Shown: in pieces, positions 7,968 through 34,750 of the stretch | Numbering within the stretch: the first letter of the stretch is position 1 | Layout: the number at the start of each line of letters is the position of its first letter | Translations under genes and position numbers: made by a program | Sequence record: NC_105587.1 | Source: Escherichia phage EC100 | DNA: 64,000 nucleotides | Strand: one strand, 5' to 3' | The notes under the pieces: model-generated | Told to the model about the DNA's origin: nothing | The model's input: the letters and a program-made list of their open reading frames with translations, nothing else | The model's database searches: none

Positions 7968-8031
7968 TCCTATAGTGTACTTCGCTAACAGAGGATCAAC
8001 AAAAAGATCTTGTTTATCAACTTACAAATAT

Positions 8032-8060
8032 ATTATACCAGTATATGCAGTAAAAAGCAA
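8032..8060 (-). promoter_or_regulatory. sigma70-type promoter, TTGCTT-17-TATAAT, for phoH
   Basis: -35 rc of 8055-8060, -10 rc of 8032-8037. Confidence 0.55.
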
Positions 8061-8270
8061 CTACAATTTTAAATAAGCCTATGATATTGCATTTAAATAA
8101 AAAATTTGCTTGCTTTTAACGGGAAATGTATGGTATTAGATAATCATTTTATACCGCGTACATAGGTGCGTGATTATACTATTTTAAGTACAAAATAGCA
8201 AATAAATTTTTTAACAATTTGCTAACCTTTTAGCACAGATCAAAATACAATATCTAAGAGAAAAATTATA

Positions 8271-8299
8271 TTGACATTTGCCCTTGAATAAGCTATAAT
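8271..8299 (+). promoter_or_regulatory. consensus sigma70 promoter, TTGACA-17-TATAAT, for nrdD
   Basis: Perfect -35 (8271-8276) and -10 (8294-8299) hexamers with 17-nt spacer, in an AT-rich 360-bp divergent region. Confidence 0.7.
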
Positions 8300-8328
8300 A
8301 GTAGTCTTAGCTAGAGAAGGAGAGTATA

Positions 8329-10203
8329 ATGAATCGCAATGATGAACTAAAGTACAAGGAAATGCAGTCCTTGATTAGAAACTGCAAAGAAATTATTGAG
8401 GGTTCTGCTGATGAAGAGCTTCTCTTTAATAATGCGAATAAACCCTCTGAGCGTTTCCCTACACAAAGGGATATGCTTGCAGGGGAATTGAGTAAATATC
8501 TGATTCTAGAAGAAATGCCAATTCAGATTCGAAATGCTCATATGATTGGTGATATTCACTTTCATGATGCTGATTACGCTGCTTTAGGCATGACTAACTG
8601 TTGCCTAGTAGCCCTGGAAGATATGTTGAAAAATGGTATGAAAGTTGGTAATGCTGAAATTAGCACTCCAAACTCTATCACTACTGCGGCTGCTATTACA
8701 GCTCAGATTATCACACAGGTTAGTTCCCATCAGTATGGAGGTACTTCTGTAGACCGATTAGATGAGGTATTGGCTCCTTATGTTCGTAAGTCTTATGATA
8801 AGAATCATGCGTTTGCAAAACGTTGGACTAAGGATGAAGCCAAAGCATCAGTAATGGCTACGGAGATGACTGAAAAAGAAGTCTATGATGCTTGTCAAGG
8901 TCTAGAGTATGAAATCAATACGATGTTCAACTCTAATGGTCAGAGTCCATTTATTACCTTTGGTTTTGGTCTAGGAACTTCTTGGGAAGCACGTCTAGTA
9001 CAGAAAGCAATACTGAAAGTACGTATGGATGGCTTAGGCATCAATAAACGTACAGCTATCTTTCCGAAACTGGTGTTTGTTCTGCGTGATGGCGTAAATA
9101 TGAAGCCAGGAGATGTTAATTATGACATCAAGAAGTTAGCTATGAAATGTACTGCTGAACGTATGTATCCGGACTATATAAGCTATGATAAGGTTGTGGA
9201 AGTTACGGGCGACTATAAAGTTTCTATGGGCTGCCGTTCATTCCTAGCTGCTACAGAAGATGGTGAAACTGCCGGTCGTAATAACTTAGGTGTTGTTTCT
9301 ATAAACTTGCCTAGAATTGCTATCGAAGCTGAGGGGAATATTGATCTATTCTTTGATTTGCTTGAGTTACGTGTGGATACAGCGTTAAAAGCATTGGAGT
9401 GGAGGGTTGATCGCTTAAAATACATTCAAGCTAAAGCCGCACCCATCCTCTATATGTCAGGAGCCTTTGGATTACGCTTAGGGCCTGATGAGTATGTATT
9501 CGATCATTTCTATAACCGTGCTTCTGTATCTCTGGGGTATATTGGTTGCCATGAAATGTTACAGTTCATGTTTGGCAAAGATGTGGATACAATGTCAGAC
9601 ACCTGTATTAAGTTTGTACAACGTGTTCTACAGTATATGCGGGATAGAGTGGATCAGAAGAAGGAAGAGACTCAGTTAGGCTATAGTCTGTATGCTACAC
9701 CATCAGAGTCCCTATGTGATCGCTTTTGTCGTCTAGACCATGAATATTTCCCGGAGCATGAAGATATTCTGTCCAAAGGTTACTACACTAACTCACACCA
9801 CCTCGATGTGGAGCGTAAGGTTGCTCCAAACGTGAAGTTTGACTATGAATCTAATTTTACTCCAATTGCATCTGGTGGGTGTATTTCCTACGTGGAATTA
9901 CCAGACATGAAACGATTCCCAGATGCACTGGAATGGGTTATTAACTATGCTGCTAGTAAGGTTCATTACTTTGGTATTAATACTCCAGTGGATTCTTGTG
10001 GTAAATGTGGATTCTTAGGTGAAACAGTAGCATCCGAAGATGGATTCAAGTGCCCTATCTGTGGTAATCATGACCCTGAAACTCTTGAAGTAACTCGTCG
10101 AGTTTGTGGGTATCTTGGAAATCCAGGTGCTCGTCCGTTTAACCCAGGCAAACAACATGAGGTTATGGGCAGGGTGAAACATCAGGATATTCTAGCTAAA
10201 TAA
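8329..10203 (+). CDS. nrdD: anaerobic ribonucleotide reductase, class III catalytic subunit
   Basis: 624 aa; C-terminal Zn-ribbon CGKCG...CPICG and glycyl-radical motif RVCGYLG. Confidence 0.85.
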   Translation: MNRNDELKYKEMQSLIRNCKEIIEGSADEELLFNNANKPSERFPTQRDMLAGELSKYLILEEMPIQIRNAHMIGDIHFHDADYAALGMTNCCLVALEDMLKNGMKVGNAEISTPNSITTAAAITAQIITQVSSHQYGGTSVDRLDEVLAPYVRKSYDKNHAFAKRWTKDEAKASVMATEMTEKEVYDACQGLEYEINTMFNSNGQSPFITFGFGLGTSWEARLVQKAILKVRMDGLGINKRTAIFPKLVFVLRDGVNMKPGDVNYDIKKLAMKCTAERMYPDYISYDKVVEVTGDYKVSMGCRSFLAATEDGETAGRNNLGVVSINLPRIAIEAEGNIDLFFDLLELRVDTALKALEWRVDRLKYIQAKAAPILYMSGAFGLRLGPDEYVFDHFYNRASVSLGYIGCHEMLQFMFGKDVDTMSDTCIKFVQRVLQYMRDRVDQKKEETQLGYSLYATPSESLCDRFCRLDHEYFPEHEDILSKGYYTNSHHLDVERKVAPNVKFDYESNFTPIASGGCISYVELPDMKRFPDALEWVINYAASKVHYFGINTPVDSCGKCGFLGETVASEDGFKCPICGNHDPETLEVTRRVCGYLGNPGARPFNPGKQHEVMGRVKHQDILAK

Positions 10204-12378: not shown

Positions 12379-12807
12379 ATGTTCAATAATGTATTCTCTA
12401 AAGAAGCTAACCCAATATTGGTTAATTTTTGGCGTACTCTTCCAGACAACCTGTACAATGAGGCTATTAATGCTCTGAAAATATGGTGTGAGAATAATGA
12501 AATCTCCTTTGCTTTTAAAGGTGAGATTGAAGAAGCTCCCTGTATTGGTTTAATTGTGCAGGTAGAGGATGGCTTTGAAGAGATTGTCGGCTGGAAAGAG
12601 TTAGATGAAATGGGCTTGGTTTTTGCGTTAAACTATAAGCTGTTTATGCCTAATAAGCACCGTATTGTTGTTAACTATAAAACCAGTGAATCTCCGGGCT
12701 TTCAAGTTAATGAACATTACGGTTGGTCTTACTCACCGGAAGAAGTAAATGATGGTATACAAAAACTTCGTCGTTTTGGTTATCAAATTCCGGGTTTAAC
12801 CGCCTAA
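12379..12807 (+). CDS. hypothetical protein, paralog 1
   Basis: 142 aa; shares E(L)D..MGL(V/I)(F/V)ALN(Y/F).LF.P core and C-terminal (I/Y)(P/V)GL with the next ORF. Confidence 0.5.
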   Translation: MFNNVFSKEANPILVNFWRTLPDNLYNEAINALKIWCENNEISFAFKGEIEEAPCIGLIVQVEDGFEEIVGWKELDEMGLVFALNYKLFMPNKHRIVVNYKTSESPGFQVNEHYGWSYSPEEVNDGIQKLRRFGYQIPGLTA

Positions 12808-12817
12808 AGGGGGCACA

Positions 12818-13210
12818 ATGGAACAAGTATATTGGCGTCAGATTGATCCTAGTTTGGTGAAGCGTGCGGAGAAGCTGCTACAACGTTGGTTGGGGGTAAG
12901 ACAAGCCTCCTTCACTTTTCCGGAGCAGCAAATAGACGATCCCTGTGTTGGTGTTTTCCTATCAGGCTACGCTAGGGAATGGGAATTGGATTGGAATGAA
13001 TTGTCTGCTATGGGTTTAATTGTTGCACTAAATTTCTCTTTGTTCCATCCACGTGGTTTGGCCATATGTCGTGTGCCTGATGACGGTTGTTCGCCCCATC
13101 TTTTACAGGTGGAAGATGATATTTGGGAGTACACTCCAGATATTCTCAAAGAAGCCAAAGAACAATTAAACCGTGTTGGGATCTATGTTCCGGGGCTAAA
13201 TGATAAATGA
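12818..13210 (+). CDS. hypothetical protein, paralog 2
   Basis: 130 aa; tandem paralog of 12379-12807. Confidence 0.5.
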   Translation: MEQVYWRQIDPSLVKRAEKLLQRWLGVRQASFTFPEQQIDDPCVGVFLSGYAREWELDWNELSAMGLIVALNFSLFHPRGLAICRVPDDGCSPHLLQVEDDIWEYTPDILKEAKEQLNRVGIYVPGLNDK

Positions 13211-13233
13211 TTTTTATTAGTTGACCTCTGATT

Positions 13234-13262
13234 ACCGAGTCATTTTGGCTCGGTTTTCTCTA
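13234..13262 (+). terminator. putative rho-independent terminator
   Basis: ACCGAG / CTCGGT stem followed by TTTCTC. Confidence 0.4.
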
Positions 13263-13301
13263 TGCTCAAAGACACTGATAGCACCATCCGGAAAATTTTA
13301 C

Positions 13302-13330
13302 TTGCAGGATGCCCAAAATCTTGATATAAT
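13302..13330 (+). promoter_or_regulatory. extended -10 promoter (TTGCAG-17-TATAAT with TGn) with no ORF behind it
   Basis: TGATATAAT extended -10 at 13322-13330; the next ORF starts about 500 nt downstream. Confidence 0.5.
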
Positions 13331-13827
13331 ATTTATATTGAATTGAGAGACATTAGTAAAAATTGATTTTGCTAATTTTTCTTGTTTACAATCCGCGATA
13401 CGGAACAGTTAGGCTGCCCCATTAAGGGTTGTTTTAACTATTACTAGTGTTTATATTGCATTAGTTAATCTTCAATTAAGTGATCTGTGTACCCTGAATT
13501 CGGAAAGGTAAATCCAAACCGTGCATATTTAGCTCGTTATATAGGCAGAGTTTTATATGGGGGTGCGAACGAAAAGAGCAGCGAATGGCGGCACGTACAG
13601 TAGTCACCTACCAATAGGATAGTGAGGACAAATAGAATCGGCTTAGCGGCCAATGACCTAGGTTCTATTCTGTATATGAGCGAAGAGAGCACAGCACTGA
13701 GATATGATAACTTATTCATATTGTTTGATGATAATTGATGTTTACGTAAATAGTAGTAATAGTTGTTCTATTCTTTCTGAATAGTCCTAAAGAAAAGATT
13801 TCGATTAACCAACACAGGAGTATTGTT

Positions 13828-15666
13828 GTGTTTTCTATCCTTCAAGGTCACGCCGGATTTTCTCGTGATTTAGCAACAGGTATTTGGCGAGAAATCAAAG
13901 CGGAAGATTATACCTTTGCCAAGCGATTCTCGAAAGAGCATCCAGAAGGTAAACCAGCTTCTATGCCCTTCAAATTTGATGTAATAGAAGAGCACGACCC
14001 ACAAAGCCTTGCCGAAATGTTACCCCTTATGAGACGTTTAACGTCTGACCCTCATATCGTTGCGGTACGAGGTCGATGTCTTGCACCTAAAAATAATGTG
14101 CGACGTAAGAAAGGTAACTTTAATGTATCTAATCCTAGTAATATTATTGCTATGGACGTGGATGGTATCCTAGATACCGGTGGGTACGACAAATTTAATC
14201 TTGTTGGTATGGCCCGCCACATTATTAAGATGTTGAATAGTATTAGTGAGGATATGTTTCCTCTTGATGCAGGCTTTATAGCTCATGCATCATCTTCGGC
14301 TGGGCTAAAACCAGGTATCCGAATGCACTTAATGCTAGAATCTAACGTCAAGGTAACTCAGGGTCAGCTAAAGTTCTTATTTACATCTATCAACGATAGT
14401 AGTAAGCAAAAATTTGGTTTTGATATTGCCGACCTAGCTTATTATTCATCTGTCCAGCTCCACTATTTTGCCGACCCCTTATTTAGCGATGGTATTGTTG
14501 ATCCGTTTAAAGCGGAGAGTAAGCCACGTCTGGTGTATGTTAAAGGTTCGAAAGTAAATTTGCCCAATAATCTAGTTGACTATGAAACAACTAGAGGGGA
14601 GTTTAAGGAAGAGTTTTATTCTTTACTTGATCAAATTAAAGGCAAAAAGATTGCTTCTGATAAAGTAGAAGAAACCATCAGCGAGTTAGAAGAGGCTGAT
14701 GATGGAGTGTATTTGCGTATTATCCCCAAACTATACCATAGAGCATTAGAGGATGGTGTTGATTTTGCATGGCTAGAACGTGAGATTAAACCAGCTTTAT
14801 CTGAATATATTGCAACTAAAGATAACAGTCGTAATATTCAAGATTACTTTAATAACGGTCGTAAGCAGGCTCTCAAAGCGTTTGTTAATAATTCTAAACG
14901 TGAGATTCCATTAAATCTGAAAGGTGTTCCACTTAAGAAATTAGAAGTGGATTCTCCACCAGAAGTTCCATACCTGAAGATTAATATTGTGCCCCCAAAA
15001 GGCCATATAACATTTGTTAAGGCAAGTCTTGGTACGGGTAAAACTACGGCAGTAACTAAATGGCTGGACGCAGGTGTTCTTCCGGGCAACTTTTTAGCAG
15101 TTACAAATACTAGAGCACTGGTATCTTCAAATGCCAAGAAATTTAGTGCAGGACAATACGATAAGTCTGTAGATATGCTCAACTTTAAGCGTGGAGCTAT
15201 TGATCGTATGTCCACAACTATTCACTCTTTGCATAAGTTCAAAAGTTTTATTGGGCAAATAGACACCATTTTTATTGATGAATGTGACGCTGTAATGAAT
15301 GACCTATTATTCGCCCCTGTTGTTAAACAACGTCGTGAGTGTATTCAAGTTCTACGTGACATCCTCATGACAGCTAAGACTGTAATCTTATCCGATGGTG
15401 ATATTAGTGCTGAGACGATTGAAGCATATGGTTCTCTAATTGATTTTGATAAACCGGTTGCATTTTATAATCATCACCGTAAAATGCTGTCAAAAGCTCA
15501 TGCTTATGAGTTCCCTGATGAGTCCAGTATTTGGGTTGCACTTCAGACTTCTCTAGAGATGGGTGAGAAATCTATTCTAGTATCTGATTGTGGCCCGGAT
15601 GAGCTAAATGAGAAAGGTATGGCACTGCGTCGTAATACGGGTGCGTTAGTTAAGGAAATCCATTGA
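13828..15666 (+). CDS. helicase-like protein, N-terminal portion, ends at in-frame TGA
   Basis: 612 aa, GTG start with AGGAG SD; Walker A GTGKTT and Walker B IFIDECD. Confidence 0.6.
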   Translation: MFSILQGHAGFSRDLATGIWREIKAEDYTFAKRFSKEHPEGKPASMPFKFDVIEEHDPQSLAEMLPLMRRLTSDPHIVAVRGRCLAPKNNVRRKKGNFNVSNPSNIIAMDVDGILDTGGYDKFNLVGMARHIIKMLNSISEDMFPLDAGFIAHASSSAGLKPGIRMHLMLESNVKVTQGQLKFLFTSINDSSKQKFGFDIADLAYYSSVQLHYFADPLFSDGIVDPFKAESKPRLVYVKGSKVNLPNNLVDYETTRGEFKEEFYSLLDQIKGKKIASDKVEETISELEEADDGVYLRIIPKLYHRALEDGVDFAWLEREIKPALSEYIATKDNSRNIQDYFNNGRKQALKAFVNNSKREIPLNLKGVPLKKLEVDSPPEVPYLKINIVPPKGHITFVKASLGTGKTTAVTKWLDAGVLPGNFLAVTNTRALVSSNAKKFSAGQYDKSVDMLNFKRGAIDRMSTTIHSLHKFKSFIGQIDTIFIDECDAVMNDLLFAPVVKQRRECIQVLRDILMTAKTVILSDGDISAETIEAYGSLIDFDKPVAFYNHHRKMLSKAHAYEFPDESSIWVALQTSLEMGEKSILVSDCGPDELNEKGMALRRNTGALVKEIH

Positions 15667-15681
15667 AACTCTACCTCAGAT

Positions 15682-16617
15682 GTGGATATTCGACGTATTC
15701 TGGATTACACAACTAATGAACTAATTGATCAACAAATTGATTGCTTATTATGTAGTCCATCCGTAACGAGTGGTGTTGACTTTAACTATTTTGATAACGT
15801 ATTTGTGATTACTAGAACTAGTAATCAAGCGCCAAACATGCGTTTCCAAGCAATCAGGCGCGACCGTGGTGCTCAGAATATCTATTATTTTATTGATAAA
15901 TCCACTAGTGGATTCTCCGCAGGTTCTGAACAATATAATATTGATGAGGGTTGGCTGGAGTTAGCACAGCAATTATATGCACGTCGCAGGGAGCTGGAAT
16001 CTAGGAACTATACTAGTACTTTACGTTATTACTTGCTTGATCAGGGTGCAACTATTGATATTTTCAGTGAAAGCTGGGGAACTATTGAAGGTGCTGGTAA
16101 AGAGTACACAGAAGAGCGAATCAAAGCTATTCTGCACTCAACTCCTGATTATTGTGCTCCACGTCATGCGGATGCGTATGAAGCTAAGCTACTTCTTGTT
16201 CGCTATTATCATCTCGAGTCTATTAAAGATGTAACAGTTGAGCATGTTGAACAATATATAAAAGATAAACCGAATGATCGAGCTGCATTCTTCCATAAGA
16301 TGCACGAGATGTTCTGGGAAGATATTAAGAAGTGTTCAAATGTGACCATTAAACCATTCATAGAGGCTCTGAAAGGTAAGAAGAAAGATTTCTTCCTTAA
16401 AACCGGTCAGAGTGCTAACCCAAAATATGCTAGAATGTATCTTGGCATGATGGGTATTGGTAAGGATATGAACACGGAGAATATCGTAGACTGGTACAGA
16501 ACCTACTGTAAAATCGAGTGTATGCCAATTCCTTATAAATTCATGACTGACGAGGAAAAACATATGCACGATGAAGCAATGTCAGAGCTAGGTGCTAGAA
16601 ATGACAGTGAAGAATAA
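15682..16617 (+). CDS. helicase-like protein, C-terminal portion (same frame as 13828-15666)
   Basis: 311 aa in the same reading frame 15 nt after the TGA; helicase-like SPSVTSGVDF motif; no SD in front of its GTG. Confidence 0.5.
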   Translation: MDIRRILDYTTNELIDQQIDCLLCSPSVTSGVDFNYFDNVFVITRTSNQAPNMRFQAIRRDRGAQNIYYFIDKSTSGFSAGSEQYNIDEGWLELAQQLYARRRELESRNYTSTLRYYLLDQGATIDIFSESWGTIEGAGKEYTEERIKAILHSTPDYCAPRHADAYEAKLLLVRYYHLESIKDVTVEHVEQYIKDKPNDRAAFFHKMHEMFWEDIKKCSNVTIKPFIEALKGKKKDFFLKTGQSANPKYARMYLGMMGIGKDMNTENIVDWYRTYCKIECMPIPYKFMTDEEKHMHDEAMSELGARNDSEE

Positions 16618-18762: not shown

Positions 18763-19071
18763 ATGAGCGAACAGGTAAATCAAAACTATGAAGGACACGT
18801 TGATGACCAGTCCATCATACTTTGGGAGAAGGAGGGAGAACAAGTAAGATTAACAGTATCTGAATTTCGTGGGAATCTATACATGGGTATTCGTTACTGG
18901 CTTCTTGATATTAATGATGAATGGTTTCCAACGAAATCTGGCTTCTCTTTTCCTTACACCCTAGAAACAACATCACAGCTTTTCTATGCGTTTACACAGA
19001 TTCTCAGCGAATCTGAGGTTTTACATGAAGTACAGAAACGAGCTGAAGAACTCAAAGCCAAGAATGCCTAG
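18763..19071 (+). CDS. hypothetical protein
   Basis: 102-aa ORF between two terminators. Confidence 0.45.
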   Translation: MSEQVNQNYEGHVDDQSIILWEKEGEQVRLTVSEFRGNLYMGIRYWLLDINDEWFPTKSGFSFPYTLETTSQLFYAFTQILSESEVLHEVQKRAEELKAKNA

Positions 19072-27434: not shown

Positions 27435-28783
27435 AGGTTGTTATATCTAATAAAGCCTATTTCAAGCCCGATGATGAACTTTGGGATTATTGTAGTAAGC
27501 AAACCACTTATCACATTGAGACAATGACTAGTAAATACCCTATTATGTATAAGAATAGTGGTGTTGTTGCTAAAGAGATTAAGTGGATTCCTATCACGCG
27601 TCTAGATTTACTAGATGCTAAAGGAGTAAAATACGAATTAGTCGATAAACGCACATTAGCCCCAGTAGATATACCAAAACCTAAGTTTAAGCTGCGTGAA
27701 GAAGACCAGCTCCCAATATATGAAGAGTGCGATGATACCTGTATTATTAATGGTAAGCCTGGATTTGGCAAAACTATCCTAGCCCTGGCACTTGCGTATA
27801 AATTTGGCCAGAAAACTTTGGTAATTTGTACCAACACATCTATTCGTGAAATGTGGGCGGCAGAAGTTCGTAAATGGTTTGGGTTCGAACCGGGCATTAT
27901 AGGTTCTGGGAAATACAATATTGATCCACCAATTGTAGTCAGTAATATTCAAACAGTAAATAAACATGCGAATAATCTTTCTAAAGTATTCGGTACTGTT
28001 ATAGTTGACGAAGTTCACCATTGTGTGGCTACAACTTTCACTAACTTCCTAGAAATATCATGTGCTCGCTATAAGATTGGACTATCTGGAACATTAAAAC
28101 GTAAAGATGGTCTACAAGTTATGTTCAAAGACTTCTTTGGATATAAGATCTTCAGCCCGCCTGTTAATAATACTGTTGCACCTACAATCCATAGGTACTC
28201 TGTACCTGTTGAGTTATCAGGAAATCAGAATGTGCCATGGGCATTACGTGCTAATGATGTGTACAACCATCCTGAATATCGAGAGACTATTATAAACTTA
28301 GCACACTTATACGTGAATATGGGGCATAAAGTACTCATTGTAAGTGACAGAACAGAGTTAATCCAAACAGTACTAGAAGCTCTCGCACAGCGTGGTGTTA
28401 CAACATATGAAATTATAGGGGCAACTCACTTAGATGACCGATTAAAAATTCAGGAAGATATAGCAAAAGGTGGACCTTGTGTACTTGCAGCAGCTCAAAG
28501 TATCTTCTCTGAAGGTATTTCCCTTAATGAGTTGTCTTGTTTAATAATGGGAAGTCTCATTAATAATGAATCTCTCATCGAACAGCTTGCAGGACGTGTT
28601 CAACGTATTGTCGATGGTAAACTAGACCCTATTGTTGTAGATCTAATTATGAAAGGTGGCACTGGACTAAGACAGGCTTCTGGACGTATGGCAGTATATC
28701 GTAACAACGGGTGGAAAACTATTACCATGACCCCTGAGAAAGCAGTTCAATTAGCTAAAATTGCATTTGGCAACAGCTCATAA
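27431..28783 (+). CDS. SF2 DEAH-box helicase (T5 D10-like)
   Basis: 450 aa; Walker A GKPGFGKT, motif II DEVHH, C-terminal helicase motifs. Confidence 0.8.
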   Translation: MKVVISNKAYFKPDDELWDYCSKQTTYHIETMTSKYPIMYKNSGVVAKEIKWIPITRLDLLDAKGVKYELVDKRTLAPVDIPKPKFKLREEDQLPIYEECDDTCIINGKPGFGKTILALALAYKFGQKTLVICTNTSIREMWAAEVRKWFGFEPGIIGSGKYNIDPPIVVSNIQTVNKHANNLSKVFGTVIVDEVHHCVATTFTNFLEISCARYKIGLSGTLKRKDGLQVMFKDFFGYKIFSPPVNNTVAPTIHRYSVPVELSGNQNVPWALRANDVYNHPEYRETIINLAHLYVNMGHKVLIVSDRTELIQTVLEALAQRGVTTYEIIGATHLDDRLKIQEDIAKGGPCVLAAAQSIFSEGISLNELSCLIMGSLINNESLIEQLAGRVQRIVDGKLDPIVVDLIMKGGTGLRQASGRMAVYRNNGWKTITMTPEKAVQLAKIAFGNSS

Positions 28784-28795
28784 ATGATGTATAAT
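28767..28795 (+). promoter_or_regulatory. sigma70-type promoter, TTGGCA-17-TATAAT, first of a tandem pair
   Basis: Followed by the conserved leader ATAAATTTGAGAGAG but no ORF. Confidence 0.45.
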
Positions 28796-28866
28796 ATATA
28801 CATAAATTTGAGAGAGAAAGTTTCGGATTGATAAGAAAGTCCGAAGCAGAAAAATAAAAATTTTAG

Positions 28867-28896
28867 TTGCTAAATTCTCTCGAAATCTAGTATAAT
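28867..28896 (+). promoter_or_regulatory. cassette promoter, TTGCTA-18-TATAAT
   Basis: Followed by leader ATAAATTCGAGGAG. Confidence 0.5.
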
Positions 28897-29003
28897 ATAT
28901 ACATAAATTCGAGGAGAAAATAAAAATTAAATTCTTCGATTATGAAAAGCTATACTTACTAGCTAGAGGAAATTCCGACCTAATTATTAAGCTATTCAAA
29001 AGA

Positions 29004-29288
29004 ATGCTTACAGAGCCTGATGCTCACCAATTATTGGTCGGTCCCTCATTCATTTTGAATGAATCAACTATTGTTGATAATCCAAATAAATTGTCTAATA
29101 GACAACTGGCAGAATATCTAGGAATTTTAAGTCTACGAAATTATGCCGAATACAAGTTTACAAACGATCCTAGTTTGGACATACAATATGTTCCAGTATG
29201 GATACCACGTTTAGTAATCGACACTAACCCACTAATCGCAATTAACAAATCGAAATTAATCTTTAAAGAGGAAATAAAATATGGCTAA
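29004..29288 (+). CDS. hypothetical protein
   Basis: 94-aa ORF with weak SD overlapping the next gene start. Confidence 0.3.
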   Translation: MLTEPDAHQLLVGPSFILNESTIVDNPNKLSNRQLAEYLGILSLRNYAEYKFTNDPSLDIQYVPVWIPRLVIDTNPLIAINKSKLIFKEEIKYG

Positions 29289-34248: not shown

Positions 34249-34691
34249 TTAAAATTAAGTTAACTCATCCAGATTGTATGCCTAAGATTGGATCTGAAGA
34301 TGCCGCAGGTATGGATCTGCGAGCATTCTTTGGTACTAACCCTGCAGCGGATTTACGTGCTATTGCACCCGGCAAATCCCTGATGATTGACACCGGTGTC
34401 GCGGTAGAAATTCCGCGAGGTTGGTTCGGTTTGGTAGTTCCGCGTAGTTCTCTAGGAAAGCGTCATCTGATGATTGCAAATACCGCGGGGGTGATTGATT
34501 CAGACTATCGTGGTACTATTAAGATGAACTTGTTCAATTACGGTTCTGAAATTCAAACTCTGGAGAATTTTGAAAGACTTTGTCAGTTAGTGGTACTACC
34601 GCATTACTCAACCCATAATTTTAAAATCGTTGACAAACTAGGAGAGACTGATCGTGGTGAAGGTGGGTTTGGAAGTTCGGGAAGCAAATAA
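34245..34691 (+). CDS. dut: dUTPase
   Basis: 148 aa; dUTPase motifs AAGMDLRA, VPRSSLG, GVIDSDYRG and C-terminal RGEGGFGSSG. Confidence 0.9.
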   Translation: MIKIKLTHPDCMPKIGSEDAAGMDLRAFFGTNPAADLRAIAPGKSLMIDTGVAVEIPRGWFGLVVPRSSLGKRHLMIANTAGVIDSDYRGTIKMNLFNYGSEIQTLENFERLCQLVVLPHYSTHNFKIVDKLGETDRGEGGFGSSGSK

Positions 34692-34715
34692 CCTACATAT
34701 CAAATAAATAATAAA

Positions 34716-34750
34716 CCCCAGAGGATTTTGTCCTCTGGGGTTTTCTTTTA
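34716..34750. terminator. bidirectional rho-independent terminator between convergent early and late operons
   Basis: 10-bp perfect stem CCCCAGAGGA / TCCTCTGGGG flanked by an A-run upstream and T-run downstream. Confidence 0.75.

Follow-up and report, generated by a model that had tools for sequence, protein, structure and literature searches.

A conserved structured RNA upstream of D2/obp in T5-like phages is a candidate 5′ leader of the early helicase transcript

The intergenic gap that precedes the D2/obp helicase gene of T5-like phages probably specifies a highly structured 5′ leader, about 490 nt long (13337–13827), of the early D2/obp transcript, as judged by sequence comparison. Most likely, this modeled element acts in cis, probably as an RNase III-processed leader that controls D2 expression. 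We describe it in a window of 64,000 nt from Escherichia phage EC100 (NC_105587.1), a T5-like phage with 100% identity to Escherichia phages EC122 and EC105 and 98% identity to T5. Both the terminator and the promoter in the gap already appear in T5 annotations; the structured leader is the new part. Because the conserved fold matches no catalogued family, we propose it as a new candidate for a regulator, or an RNA component, of phage DNA replication. The initial annotation had proposed a replication origin, a long structured 5′ UTR, or a noncoding RNA. Covariation, plus-strand G·U pairs, and the lack of a conserved ORF strongly support the structured 5′ UTR or noncoding RNA, whereas the origin has gained no independent support.

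The gap spans 617 nt (13211–13827) between a T5.107-like DUF7415 gene (12818–13210) and D2/obp. Plus-strand ORFs within it reach only 26–41 aa, and the minus strand holds one ORF of 60 aa and one of 43 aa. Neighboring genes, as annotated in T5, either overlap or are separated by no more than 54 nt; spacing and ORF sizes together bear out the earlier description of an ORF-free stretch in a packed genome. The length of such an AT-rich, ORF-free stretch is unremarkable alone; what is remarkable is that the gap, promoter, and fold are kept across genera. The gene upstream of the leader differs by lineage, and obp always lies directly downstream. Work on T5 D2 biochemistry is available (PMC3632103).

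A terminator and a promoter lie at the upstream end of the gap (Table 1). The terminator scan found a 9-bp stem (13234–13254) followed by UUUCUCUA, the GC-rich hairpin and U-tract of an intrinsic terminator. This element is annotated as putatively rho-independent in AY543070 and AY587007; across genera its stem varies in sequence and keeps its complementarity, as judged by eye. The promoter, T5P32, fits the T5 early sigma-70 class in its hexamers, 17-nt spacer, and extended −10 TG, has an A/T tract upstream, and is kept across genera. A simple promoter scan missed it because its −35 hexamer matches at only 3 of 6 positions. By analogy with T5 PN25, we take A13337 to be the transcription start. 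At 13325–13334, TATAATATTT carries ATATT, which at the −10/discriminator junction is a signature of T5 early promoters (PMC7472727). The initial annotation had recognized both the hairpin at 13234–13262 and the extended −10 promoter at 13302–13330, and the scan, the cross-genus complementarity, the promoter sequence, and the T5 records uphold them. Its description of the promoter as an orphan does not hold: T5P32 is an annotated early promoter of T5, and the scan detected no terminator from there to the D2/obp start codon. We therefore assign T5P32 to D2/obp.

Table 1. Features of the D2/obp upstream region (window coordinates; helices are those of the modeled leader RNA)
Feature	Coordinates	Strand	Details
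Rho-independent terminator, end of DUF7415 operon	13234–13262	+	Stem ACCGAGUCA/UGGCUCGGU, then UUUCUCUA
Early sigma-70 promoter T5P32	13302–13330	+	−35 TTGCAG 13302–13307; 17-nt spacer; extended −10 TGaTATAAT 13322–13330
P1, 16-bp hairpin, 8 nt from presumed 5′ end	13345–13383	+	9 of 15 pairs compensatory, six lineages
P2, composite hairpin	13388–13432	+	Tip GG-AA-CAGU-UAG-GCUG-CC-CC; inner hairpin 13406–13416
Closing rod, 5′ strand	13435–13475	+	P3a 13435–13454, P3b 13458–13475; pairs with 13725–13765
P4, 5′ strand (GAUCUGUG core), closes multibranch core	13479–13495	+	Pairs with 13684–13698
Left subdomain of core	13499–13589	+	Predicted fold, weakly supported by variation
Three-way junction	13595–13675	+	P5 13595–13600/13670–13675; P6 hairpin 13603–13629; P7 13631–13639/13661–13669
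P8, hairpin GGCU-UAGC-GGCC	13640–13651	+	CUUAGCGG identical in all enterobacterial lineages
P4, 3′ strand	13684–13698	+	Covariation
P9, hairpin	13701–13722	+	AU to GC between types A and A′
Closing rod, 3′ strand	13725–13765	+	P3b 13725–13741, P3a 13746–13765; inverted-repeat search and covariation
P10, hairpin CUAUUC-UUUCU-GAAUAG	13768–13784	+	Directly 3′ of rod
D2/obp ribosome-binding region	13813–13830	+	SD AGGAG 13816–13820; GTG start 13828
D2/obp gene	13828–16617	+	UL9-like SF2 "replication origin binding" helicase; Pfam PF02399, PHROG 3712, PDB UL9 relatives

The leader, which runs up to the D2 GTG, is modeled with 15 named helices and a core of ~330 nt. The predicted architecture comprises a 5′ hairpin, an invariant CAGU-UAG-GCUG module, and a closing rod of ~35 bp around a multibranch core of ~290 nt, in which a three-way junction would present an invariant GGCU-UAGC-GGCC hairpin. 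Predicted folding energy is −130.5 kcal/mol on the plus strand (z = −2.67), against −98.8 on the minus strand (z = −1.56). The P2 tip is invariant in 11 of the 13 sequences of alignment A4, and the remaining two, both from Sugarlandvirus, keep CAGU/GCUG only. From GAACAGTnnGGCTGC to CTTAGCGG the spacing is 224–234 nt in every lineage that has the motif.

In the window, the rod is built of two blocks that total 35 bp, which provides the near-continuous dsRNA of at least 20 bp expected of an RNase III stalk. Its strands change together: AACUAUUAC/GUAAUAGUU in the window corresponds to AACUGUUAC/GUAACAGUU in type B, and T5 has a G·U intermediate. Six of nine P4 pairs show compensatory change, a P4 pair changes from UA to CG between types A and A′, and the C–G and U·G pairs of P8 occur in 10 of 10 sequences of the covariance-model alignment. 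The left subdomain shows single compatible changes only, and in sequence it is strongly divergent between types A and B. P10 is not a terminator, since no U-tract follows it; P10-equivalent hairpins of different sequence were found by eye in other genera. The SD/GUG region of D2 lies within a weak predicted hairpin of 5 bp (CACAG/UUGUG). A long-range anti-SD pairing proposed by RNAalifold (UUCUUGU/ACAGGAG) was dropped, as RNAduplex scored it no better than shuffles across eight lineages. Two inverted repeats that the initial annotation had listed prove to be helices of the conserved RNA fold. ATAGAA/TTCTAT lies at 13633–13638/13663–13668; CTATTC/GAATAG is equally real and lies at 13768–13773/13779–13784, ~10 nt to the right of its earlier placement.

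Compensatory change preserves this secondary structure on the sense strand. Thirteen sequences from six lineages, aligned with plain MAFFT, had 93.6% of cells paired, versus 39–51% in slid controls, and compensatory changes occurred in 27 of 56 pairs, versus 7–12. Within types A and A′, the 153 pairs show compatible changes that are double in 6 cases and single in 12, with just 2 of 1,989 cells broken. Among leader pairs, G·U combinations far outnumbered A·C combinations (154 versus 11, and 302 versus 1), which argues for a plus-strand RNA and against a two-strand cruciform.

Plain MAFFT misaligned the junction, for which iterative covariance models (R1 and R2) were used instead. In the resulting alignment, which is itself fitted to the structure, 91.4% of cells were paired, versus 35–46% in slid controls, with compensatory changes in 19 of 22 pairs. 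Across the window, R2 gave one clear match (73.9 bits), and all others scored at most 14.3 bits; weak matches at 19023 and 29091 were treated as noise. R2 also recovered four lineages on which it had not been trained (L041, L043, L068, and L069), exactly at the junction sites placed earlier by hand, and gave no detection in Vibrio-phage or environmental lineages. The gap at 28784–29280 was considered as a paralogue and rejected; it holds a 94-aa ORF.

Against these results stands the reading of the gap as a nonfunctional spacer or a DNA-level cruciform, with an RNA fold that arises by chance or through relatedness. AT-rich DNA folds readily, and related sequences inflate shuffle tests, including the one in which none of 500 shuffles of the 13-sequence alignment was as good as the real one. 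The slid-partner controls keep that relatedness, yet drop to 35–51% paired; the untrained lineages were detected at the predicted place, and the G·U versus A·C asymmetry excludes a cruciform. We regard a spacer as very improbable.

Beyond the helices, the gap, promoter, and motif spacing are kept in all enterobacterial Demerecviridae lineages retrieved via obp. The core diverges faster than its surroundings (67% identity between types A and B versus 85–93% for flanking genes) and can be exchanged between phage lineages, the flanks remaining 93–96% identical. The element was seen only in T5-like phages, always upstream of obp and once per genome. Comparison with related phages, proposed in the initial annotation as a check on folding and covariance, thus yields a conserved plus-strand fold with strong covariation. 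That annotation had also named two findings that would speak against its view, a conserved small protein ORF in related genomes and a joint lack of transcription and sequence conservation; conservation across genera is clear, and a six-frame comparison across lineages found no conserved ORF in the gap.

The same comparison bears on whether the gap holds unannotated small protein genes. Some GenBank records call ORFs of 38–41 aa here, Salmonella phage vB_Sen_I1 annotates three small ORFs, and the window itself has plus-strand ORFs of 38, 38, and 26 aa. Among close relatives, stop-free segments match equally in all six frames; none is kept in divergent lineages, and substitutions track base pairing. 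Protein genes in the gap are hardly credible on this evidence.

How a structured leader could act on D2 is suggested by its layout. It lies between promoter and D2 with no intervening terminator or conserved ORF, and all enterobacterial lineages share this arrangement. The terminator would end the upstream operon, T5P32 would restart transcription, and the leader would then act in cis on D2 synthesis. The 5′-proximal P1 may protect the transcript from 5′-end-dependent decay, and host RNase III could cut the long rod. Such a cut would detach the 5′ module and core from the coding sequence, leaving a message that begins just upstream of P10 and the weakly structured SD/GUG region. The invariant UAG-loop hairpins (the P2 tip and P8) may be sites for a protein that sets D2 output, either D2 itself or another early protein. 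Transcription start, RNase III cleavage, and any regulatory effect of the leader are inferences.

The leader of the lambda N gene (nutL to N) is a long structured leader that connects an early promoter to an early gene and contains an RNase III site. The T5 leader resembles it in its place, downstream of an early promoter and ahead of an early gene for regulation or replication, and in forming a long duplex that is a plausible RNase III substrate; by analogy, processing would remodel access to the ribosome-binding site. It differs in being about twice as long, in its multibranch core and three-way junction, in lacking boxA/boxB and any sequence or Rfam similarity, and in that its RNase III cleavage is only predicted. 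Several points count against a cis-acting leader: It is larger and more complex than leaders that typically regulate in cis, the nonsignificant anti-SD pairing leaves it with no concrete translational switch, its layout of stalk and folded core would also suit a stable RNA excised from the transcript, and a place beside the initiator gene also fits an origin.

In the last of these readings, the gap is a promoter-primed replication origin, where the T5P32 transcript forms an R-loop or structured preprimer and the UL9-like D2 helicase opens or loads; D2 would then recognize the invariant motifs either in DNA or, as in herpesvirus OriS*, in a single-stranded hairpin form. The gap lies directly upstream of the only gene for a UL9-like "origin binding" helicase, at ~48.5% of the T5 genome by annotation coordinates. 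It also has a strong conserved promoter directed into noncoding DNA, as expected of such an origin, and two invariant motifs at constant spacing (224–234 bp). Such an origin would be compatible with a transcript that also serves as D2 mRNA, since a gene and a promoter-primed origin can use one RNA. The initiator repeats and unwinding element of an origin, however, were not found: A search of the gap for iterons and conserved dsDNA palindromes turned up, besides the RNA helices, nothing but weak two-copy direct repeats, and the AT-rich segment that type A has at 13700–13760 gives way in type B to sequence richer in G+C, leaving no conserved DNA unwinding element. What is conserved is base pairing more than sequence, and it is plus-strand-specific and rich in G·U. 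The gap sits within a plus-strand gene block, away from any gene-orientation switch, cumulative GC skew climbs steadily across 10–18 kb, and in a relative lineage (L045, L063), a promoter-like site lies just ~110–140 nt upstream of obp. We consider an origin unlikely.

Known origins give partial parallels. As in ColE1 RNA II, T4 oriF/oriG, and the T7 primary origin, several hundred structured noncoding nucleotides lie downstream of a strong promoter and next to replication functions, and as in ColE1, structure rather than sequence is conserved among variants. Unlike in these systems, the T5 leader has no antisense partner, its transcript runs into a translated gene, and no hybrid-forming G/C-rich pair was identified in it. 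Herpesvirus oriS adopts an intrastrand hairpin (OriS*), and the T5 locus is similar in that its neighbor, D2, is a distant relative of UL9. The T5 element differs in having a 330-nt multibranch fold, on the sense strand and downstream of a promoter, with no inverted sites like box I/box II found.

Alternatively, the rod could be a processing stalk from which RNase III excises the ~290-nt core as a stable noncoding RNA that works in trans, perhaps as the cofactor of a phage or host protein or as its decoy. In the five lineages where the MFE fold includes it, a rod of 27–39 bp surrounds a compact multibranch core; the invariant hairpin in the three-way junction points to a specific partner, and the core can be exchanged between lineages. 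Yet the core is never found away from obp or in more than one copy per genome, and neither a promoter nor a terminator is dedicated to it. We consider a stand-alone RNA unlikely. The likeness to rRNA RNase III stalks is that distant 5′ and 3′ segments form a long helix around a compact RNA; the enclosed T5 RNA differs in being ~290 nt and embedded in an mRNA leader. More speculatively, an excised core of ~290 nt might be an RNA component of T5 replication initiation, either as a structured preprimer or R-loop former at a T5 origin or as a partner of D2 through GGCU-UAGC-GGCC. Such an RNA would, if real, represent a new class of phage replication RNA.

Searches of catalogued RNAs returned no counterpart. 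In an Rfam 15 scan (E ≤ 10) of window positions 12500–14500 and 11 related loci, no family matched the leader core, with RNase P, 6S, tmRNA, group I/II introns, riboswitches, and ROOL/GOLLD/OLE/raiA/HEARO among the families unmatched; sub-threshold matches to unrelated families fell only over the terminator/promoter end. ARAGORN found no tRNA or tmRNA gene in the whole window. The Rfam and tRNA searches that the initial annotation suggested thus place the region in no relevant family. Like ROOL, GOLLD, OLE, raiA, and HEARO, the T5 element is a large, covariation-supported, multihelix RNA with no assigned biochemical function; unlike them it has no Rfam 15 match, is smaller than ROOL/GOLLD, and always leads the same gene within a single phage family. 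ROOL and GOLLD have phage representatives too (PMC12286853).

Several candidate likenesses were discarded. The pattern GAACAGTNNGGCTGCN{210,235}CTTAGCGG had four matches in 596 Gb of bacterial genomes, against ~7 expected by chance; these are GC-rich MAG contigs without the P7 helix and were rejected. Other CTTAGCGG sites in the window (20583 and 21826) are antisense inside genes and form no hairpins. Neither a resemblance between A1 and RNase P CR-V nor that of GAGAAGUG and GUAGCG to 5S rRNA is supported by the covariance models. The literature that we searched on T5 origin mapping, T5 transcriptomes, RNase III in T5, and structured RNAs in T5-like phages contained nothing on this region, no T5 replication origin defined at sequence level, and nothing on control of the initiator helicase D2.

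T5 is one of the classical model phages, and its relatives are widely isolated for therapeutic use. An "empty" gap, filled with spurious small ORFs in some records, becomes a defined RNA with a testable secondary structure, and annotators gain a feature to mark in >500 deposited genomes. Lytic phages rarely show large structured RNAs with this much covariation support. The fixed place before a replication initiator opens experiments on both D2 regulation and origin function. In the window, the D2/obp reading frame itself is split by a TGA at 15664–15666.

The window phage is T5-like (Tequintavirus): positions 13100–13950 are 100% identical to Escherichia phages EC122, EC105, EC104, and EC142, 99.9% identical to T5_ev219, and 98% identical to T5. 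The region under study is a 617-nt gap that the T5 records place between T5.107, a DUF7415 protein (Pfam), and T5.108, gene D2, annotated as "replication origin binding protein"; neighboring T5 genes, by comparison, overlap or lie ≤54 nt apart. D2 (also obp) is a UL9-like SF2 helicase (Pfam PF02399; PHROG 3712) with distant matches to solved herpesvirus origin-binding protein structures, and has been biochemically characterized as a bipolar helicase (PMC3632103). The lack of plausible ORFs reported in the initial annotation is real: + strand ORFs reach at most 41 aa, and two ORFs, of 60 and 43 aa, lie on the − strand. Directly upstream of the terminator lie tandem paralogous DUF7415 genes (PHROG 2502; 12379–12807 and 12818–13210).

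The terminator and promoter proposed in the initial annotation are likewise real, and both are already known. The terminator is found by scan and annotated in both T5 records. The promoter is annotated as early promoter T5P32; our promoter scan missed it because its −35 element matches only 3/6 of the consensus. It contains the ATATT motif reported in all known T5 early promoters (PMC7472727). The promoter had been called an orphan, which it is not, since a scan found no terminator between T5P32 and the D2 start codon.

Coordinates of transcription signals, predicted RNA helices (P1–P10), and D2 start signals in the window
Feature	Position	Remark
Terminator	13234–13262	9-bp stem 13234–13254, then UUUCUCUA
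Promoter T5P32	13302–13330	TTGCAG 13302–13307, 17-nt spacer, TGaTATAAT 13322–13330
Presumed transcription start	~13337	A; assumed by analogy with T5 PN25
P1	13345–13383	
P2	13388–13432	
P2 invariant tip	13406–13416	CAGU-UAG-GCUG
Rod P3a	13435–13454 / 13746–13765	
Rod P3b	13458–13475 / 13725–13741	
P4	13479–13495 / 13684–13698	
Left sub-domain	13499–13589	weakly supported; fold from energy, not covariation
P5	13595–13600 / 13670–13675	
P6	13603–13629	
P7	13631–13639 / 13661–13669	
P8	13640–13651	
P9	13701–13722	
P10	13768–13784	
SD/GUG hairpin	13813–13830	
D2 Shine–Dalgarno	13816–13820	AGGAG
D2 start codon	13828	GTG

Each lineage, folded separately, yields the same architecture. It comprises a hairpin just downstream of the presumed transcription start; a small hairpin module that is conserved; the rod (P3a plus P3b), a long closing helix pairing segments ~290 nt apart; and a multibranch core. 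Folding energy is −130.5 kcal/mol for the + strand (z −2.67) vs. −98.8 for the − strand (z −1.56). Both inverted repeats listed in the initial annotation exist: ATAGAA/TTCTAT is helix P7, and CTATTC/GAATAG, whose position was off, is hairpin P10.

Covariance analysis against related phages, which the initial annotation had suggested, used 13 sequences from six lineages in a plain MAFFT alignment, from which RNAalifold recovers the rod, P4, P7, and hairpin P8. In this alignment 93.6% of cells are paired (39–51% in slid controls, with helix partners shifted out of register), 27 of 56 pairs are changed on both sides (controls, 7–12), and the covariation score is 0.466 (controls, 0.08–0.14). None of 500 shuffles equaled this result. 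Across the covariation evidence as a whole, independent lineages are few (6–8). Tequintavirus and close relatives carry the gap as "alleles": A (window, T5), A′ (~92% identical to A), and B (including Gostya9 and saus111K). Across 13 sequences of types A and A′, the consensus of 153 pairs is broken in 2 of 1,989 cells, with six double compensatory changes (P4, P5, P6, P7 twice, P9) and 12 single changes that keep pairing; slid controls give 0–1 compensatory pairs. In P1, both partners have changed in 9 of 15 pairs across six lineages, and the rod base reads AACUAUUAC/GUAAUAGUU in the window vs. AACUGUUAC/GUAACAGUU in type B, with a G·U intermediate in T5.

Two further results bear on whether this structure could be fortuitous or confined to DNA. 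G·U pairs are more numerous than A·C pairs (154 vs. 11 and 302 vs. 1); what is constrained is therefore the + strand in single-stranded form, the strand of the predicted T5P32 transcript, rather than a two-strand DNA cruciform. Covariance models of the three-way junction (P5, P6, and P7) also carry over between lineages. R1, built from types A and A′ only, matches type B, Pectobacterium phage DU_PP_V, and Sugarlandvirus weakly, always at the correct place. R2, rebuilt after the R1 search, gives one clear match in the window (13593–13677, 73.9 bits; all others ≤14.3 bits) and detects lineages outside its training at exactly the hand-drawn boundaries: loci L041 (1278–1362, 19.3 bits), L043 (1167–1252, 17.6 bits), and L068 and L069 (1033–1127, 16.6 bits). 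In its 10-sequence alignment, which is fitted to the model and so biased toward structure, 91.4% of cells pair (35–46% slid), 19 of 22 pairs are compensatory (7–11 slid), and the GGCU-UAGC-GGCC hairpin keeps its C-G and U·G pairs in 10/10 sequences. Given the pairing asymmetry and the detection of untrained lineages, chance or DNA-only structure is highly improbable, effectively excluded; a structured sense-strand RNA is very probably under selection here.

Coding content is even less credible. A conserved small ORF, which the initial annotation named as contrary evidence, did not emerge from six-frame comparison: close relatives show stop-free segments that match equally well in all six frames, and no such segment persists between divergent lineages. 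With no frame conserved across lineages, small ORFs are effectively excluded. Salmonella phage vB_Sen_I1 has three 38–41-aa "hypothetical proteins" annotated inside the leader (L003, 1622–2139); lacking conservation in other lineages, they are probably mis-annotations. Of the suggested Rfam and tRNA searches, the latter found no tRNA or tmRNA in the window, and the former, covering the window locus and 11 related loci at E ≤ 10, found no Rfam 15 family matching the leader core. We found no published description of the leader RNA; the RNA family is new.

The region matches 532 phage records. Types A and B are 96% identical over terminator, promoter, P1, and P2, and 93.5% at the leader 3′ end, vs. 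67% over the rod and core (13435–13765), where lengths are near-equal (331 vs. 333 nt); the flanking genes are 85% (obp) and 93% (upstream gene) identical. Among loci collected via the obp protein, all enterobacterial Demerecviridae lineages examined (Klebsiella Sugarlandvirus, DU_PP_V, a 122-kb lineage (L041), Providencia, and Proteus) have an ORF-free gap of ~600–820 nt ahead of obp. The invariant island GAACAGUnnGGCUGC (13403–13417) occurs in lineages with obp 72–100% identical, and CUUAGCGG (13642–13649) extends also to the Providencia and Proteus lineages. The two islands, wherever they co-occur, are always spaced 224–234 nt apart. In viral contigs this two-island pattern has 31 matches, all T5-like genomes of 96–123 kb, at least 30 already known via obp. 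Four matches in 596 Gb of bacterial genomes, vs. ~7 expected by chance, lie in GC-rich context without the P7 helix and were rejected. The leader is strictly linked to obp, whereas its upstream neighbor gene differs between lineages. One environmental lineage (L045, L063; obp 50–52% identity) has its consensus promoter-like site only ~110–140 nt upstream of obp and seems to lack a long leader, which is therefore common, not universal.

An optional ~88–97-nt insert between P1 and P2, flanked by duplicated TTTTTCTT (equivalent site after window 13383), occurs in Gostya9 (L004, 773–869) and in L023, L028, and L042. It is found once per genome in 51 phage records of type A and type B background; 4/4 copies located in fetched loci lie in the leader, and the insert resembles an additional RNA domain or a small insertion event. 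Vibrio phages (L049–L052, ~730–1417 of each locus) have a consensus promoter and ~650-nt ORF-poor leader before obp, with modules conserved at the 5′ and 3′ ends, a center that diverges between L051 and L049, and, in L050, an optional insert of ~95 nt; R2 detects nothing in them, and the likeness to the T5 leader is one of analogous arrangement.

The stretch from the conserved early promoter to the D2 start codon, in which no terminator was found, holds a conserved multihelix fold specific to the + strand. We consider it reasonably probable that the D2 message carries this region as its 5′ leader and that the leader controls D2 output in cis, the processing and binding steps included. P1, 8 nt from the presumed 5′ end, would shield the transcript from 5′-end-dependent decay. 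At ~35 bp, the rod is of sufficient length for cleavage by host RNase III, which would detach the 5′ module and core; the remaining message would then begin immediately upstream of P10, ahead of the weakly structured SD/GUG. A U·G-closed UAG(C) loop is common to both invariant hairpins, which are putative paired protein-binding sites, possibly for D2 itself. Two other roles are compatible with this proposed cis-acting leader. A promoter-primed replication origin would suit the adjoining initiator gene and the position at ~48.5% of the T5 genome, and the accessible literature yielded no sequence-level T5 origin map; it is nonetheless unlikely: the gap contains neither iterons nor a conserved unwinding element, has no strong DNA repeats besides the RNA helices, and coincides with no switch in gene orientation or GC skew. 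An excised trans-acting RNA, which the stalk-plus-core architecture fits, is slightly more doubtful still. The lambda N leader with its RNase III site is closest in possible mode of action, ColE1 RNA II and rRNA processing stalks jointly in form, and large structured RNAs of unknown function in status; the leader belongs to none of these, and we rate it among conserved structured leader or non-coding RNAs.

D2/obp itself is interrupted in the window by an in-frame TGA (15664–15666; TCA, Ser613, in T5 and relatives), giving ORFs 13828–15666 and 15682–16617 in place of a single 929-aa gene. Of 38 related loci, 34 have TCA and 4 have CAC/CAT at the equivalent codon, and none has a stop; over 15615–15715, no phage record matches the window at 100% identity. 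Candidate explanations for the TGA are an opal mutant, a read-through site, and a sequencing error. Genes run on the − strand to 7967, the + strand from 8329 to 34248, and the − strand from 34748, the switches at ~8000–8330 and 34250–34750 being further candidate places for replication or transcription landmarks. A second ~500-nt stretch (28784–29280), 3′ of a 450-aa gene ending at 28783, holds two promoter-like sites in tandem, which have TATAATATATACATAAATT and a GAGAG-type start in common, followed by a 94-aa ORF (29004–29288) overlapping the start of the next gene; in the equivalent helicase–SSB gap of Klebsiella phage IME260, the promoter is 85% identical to T5P32.
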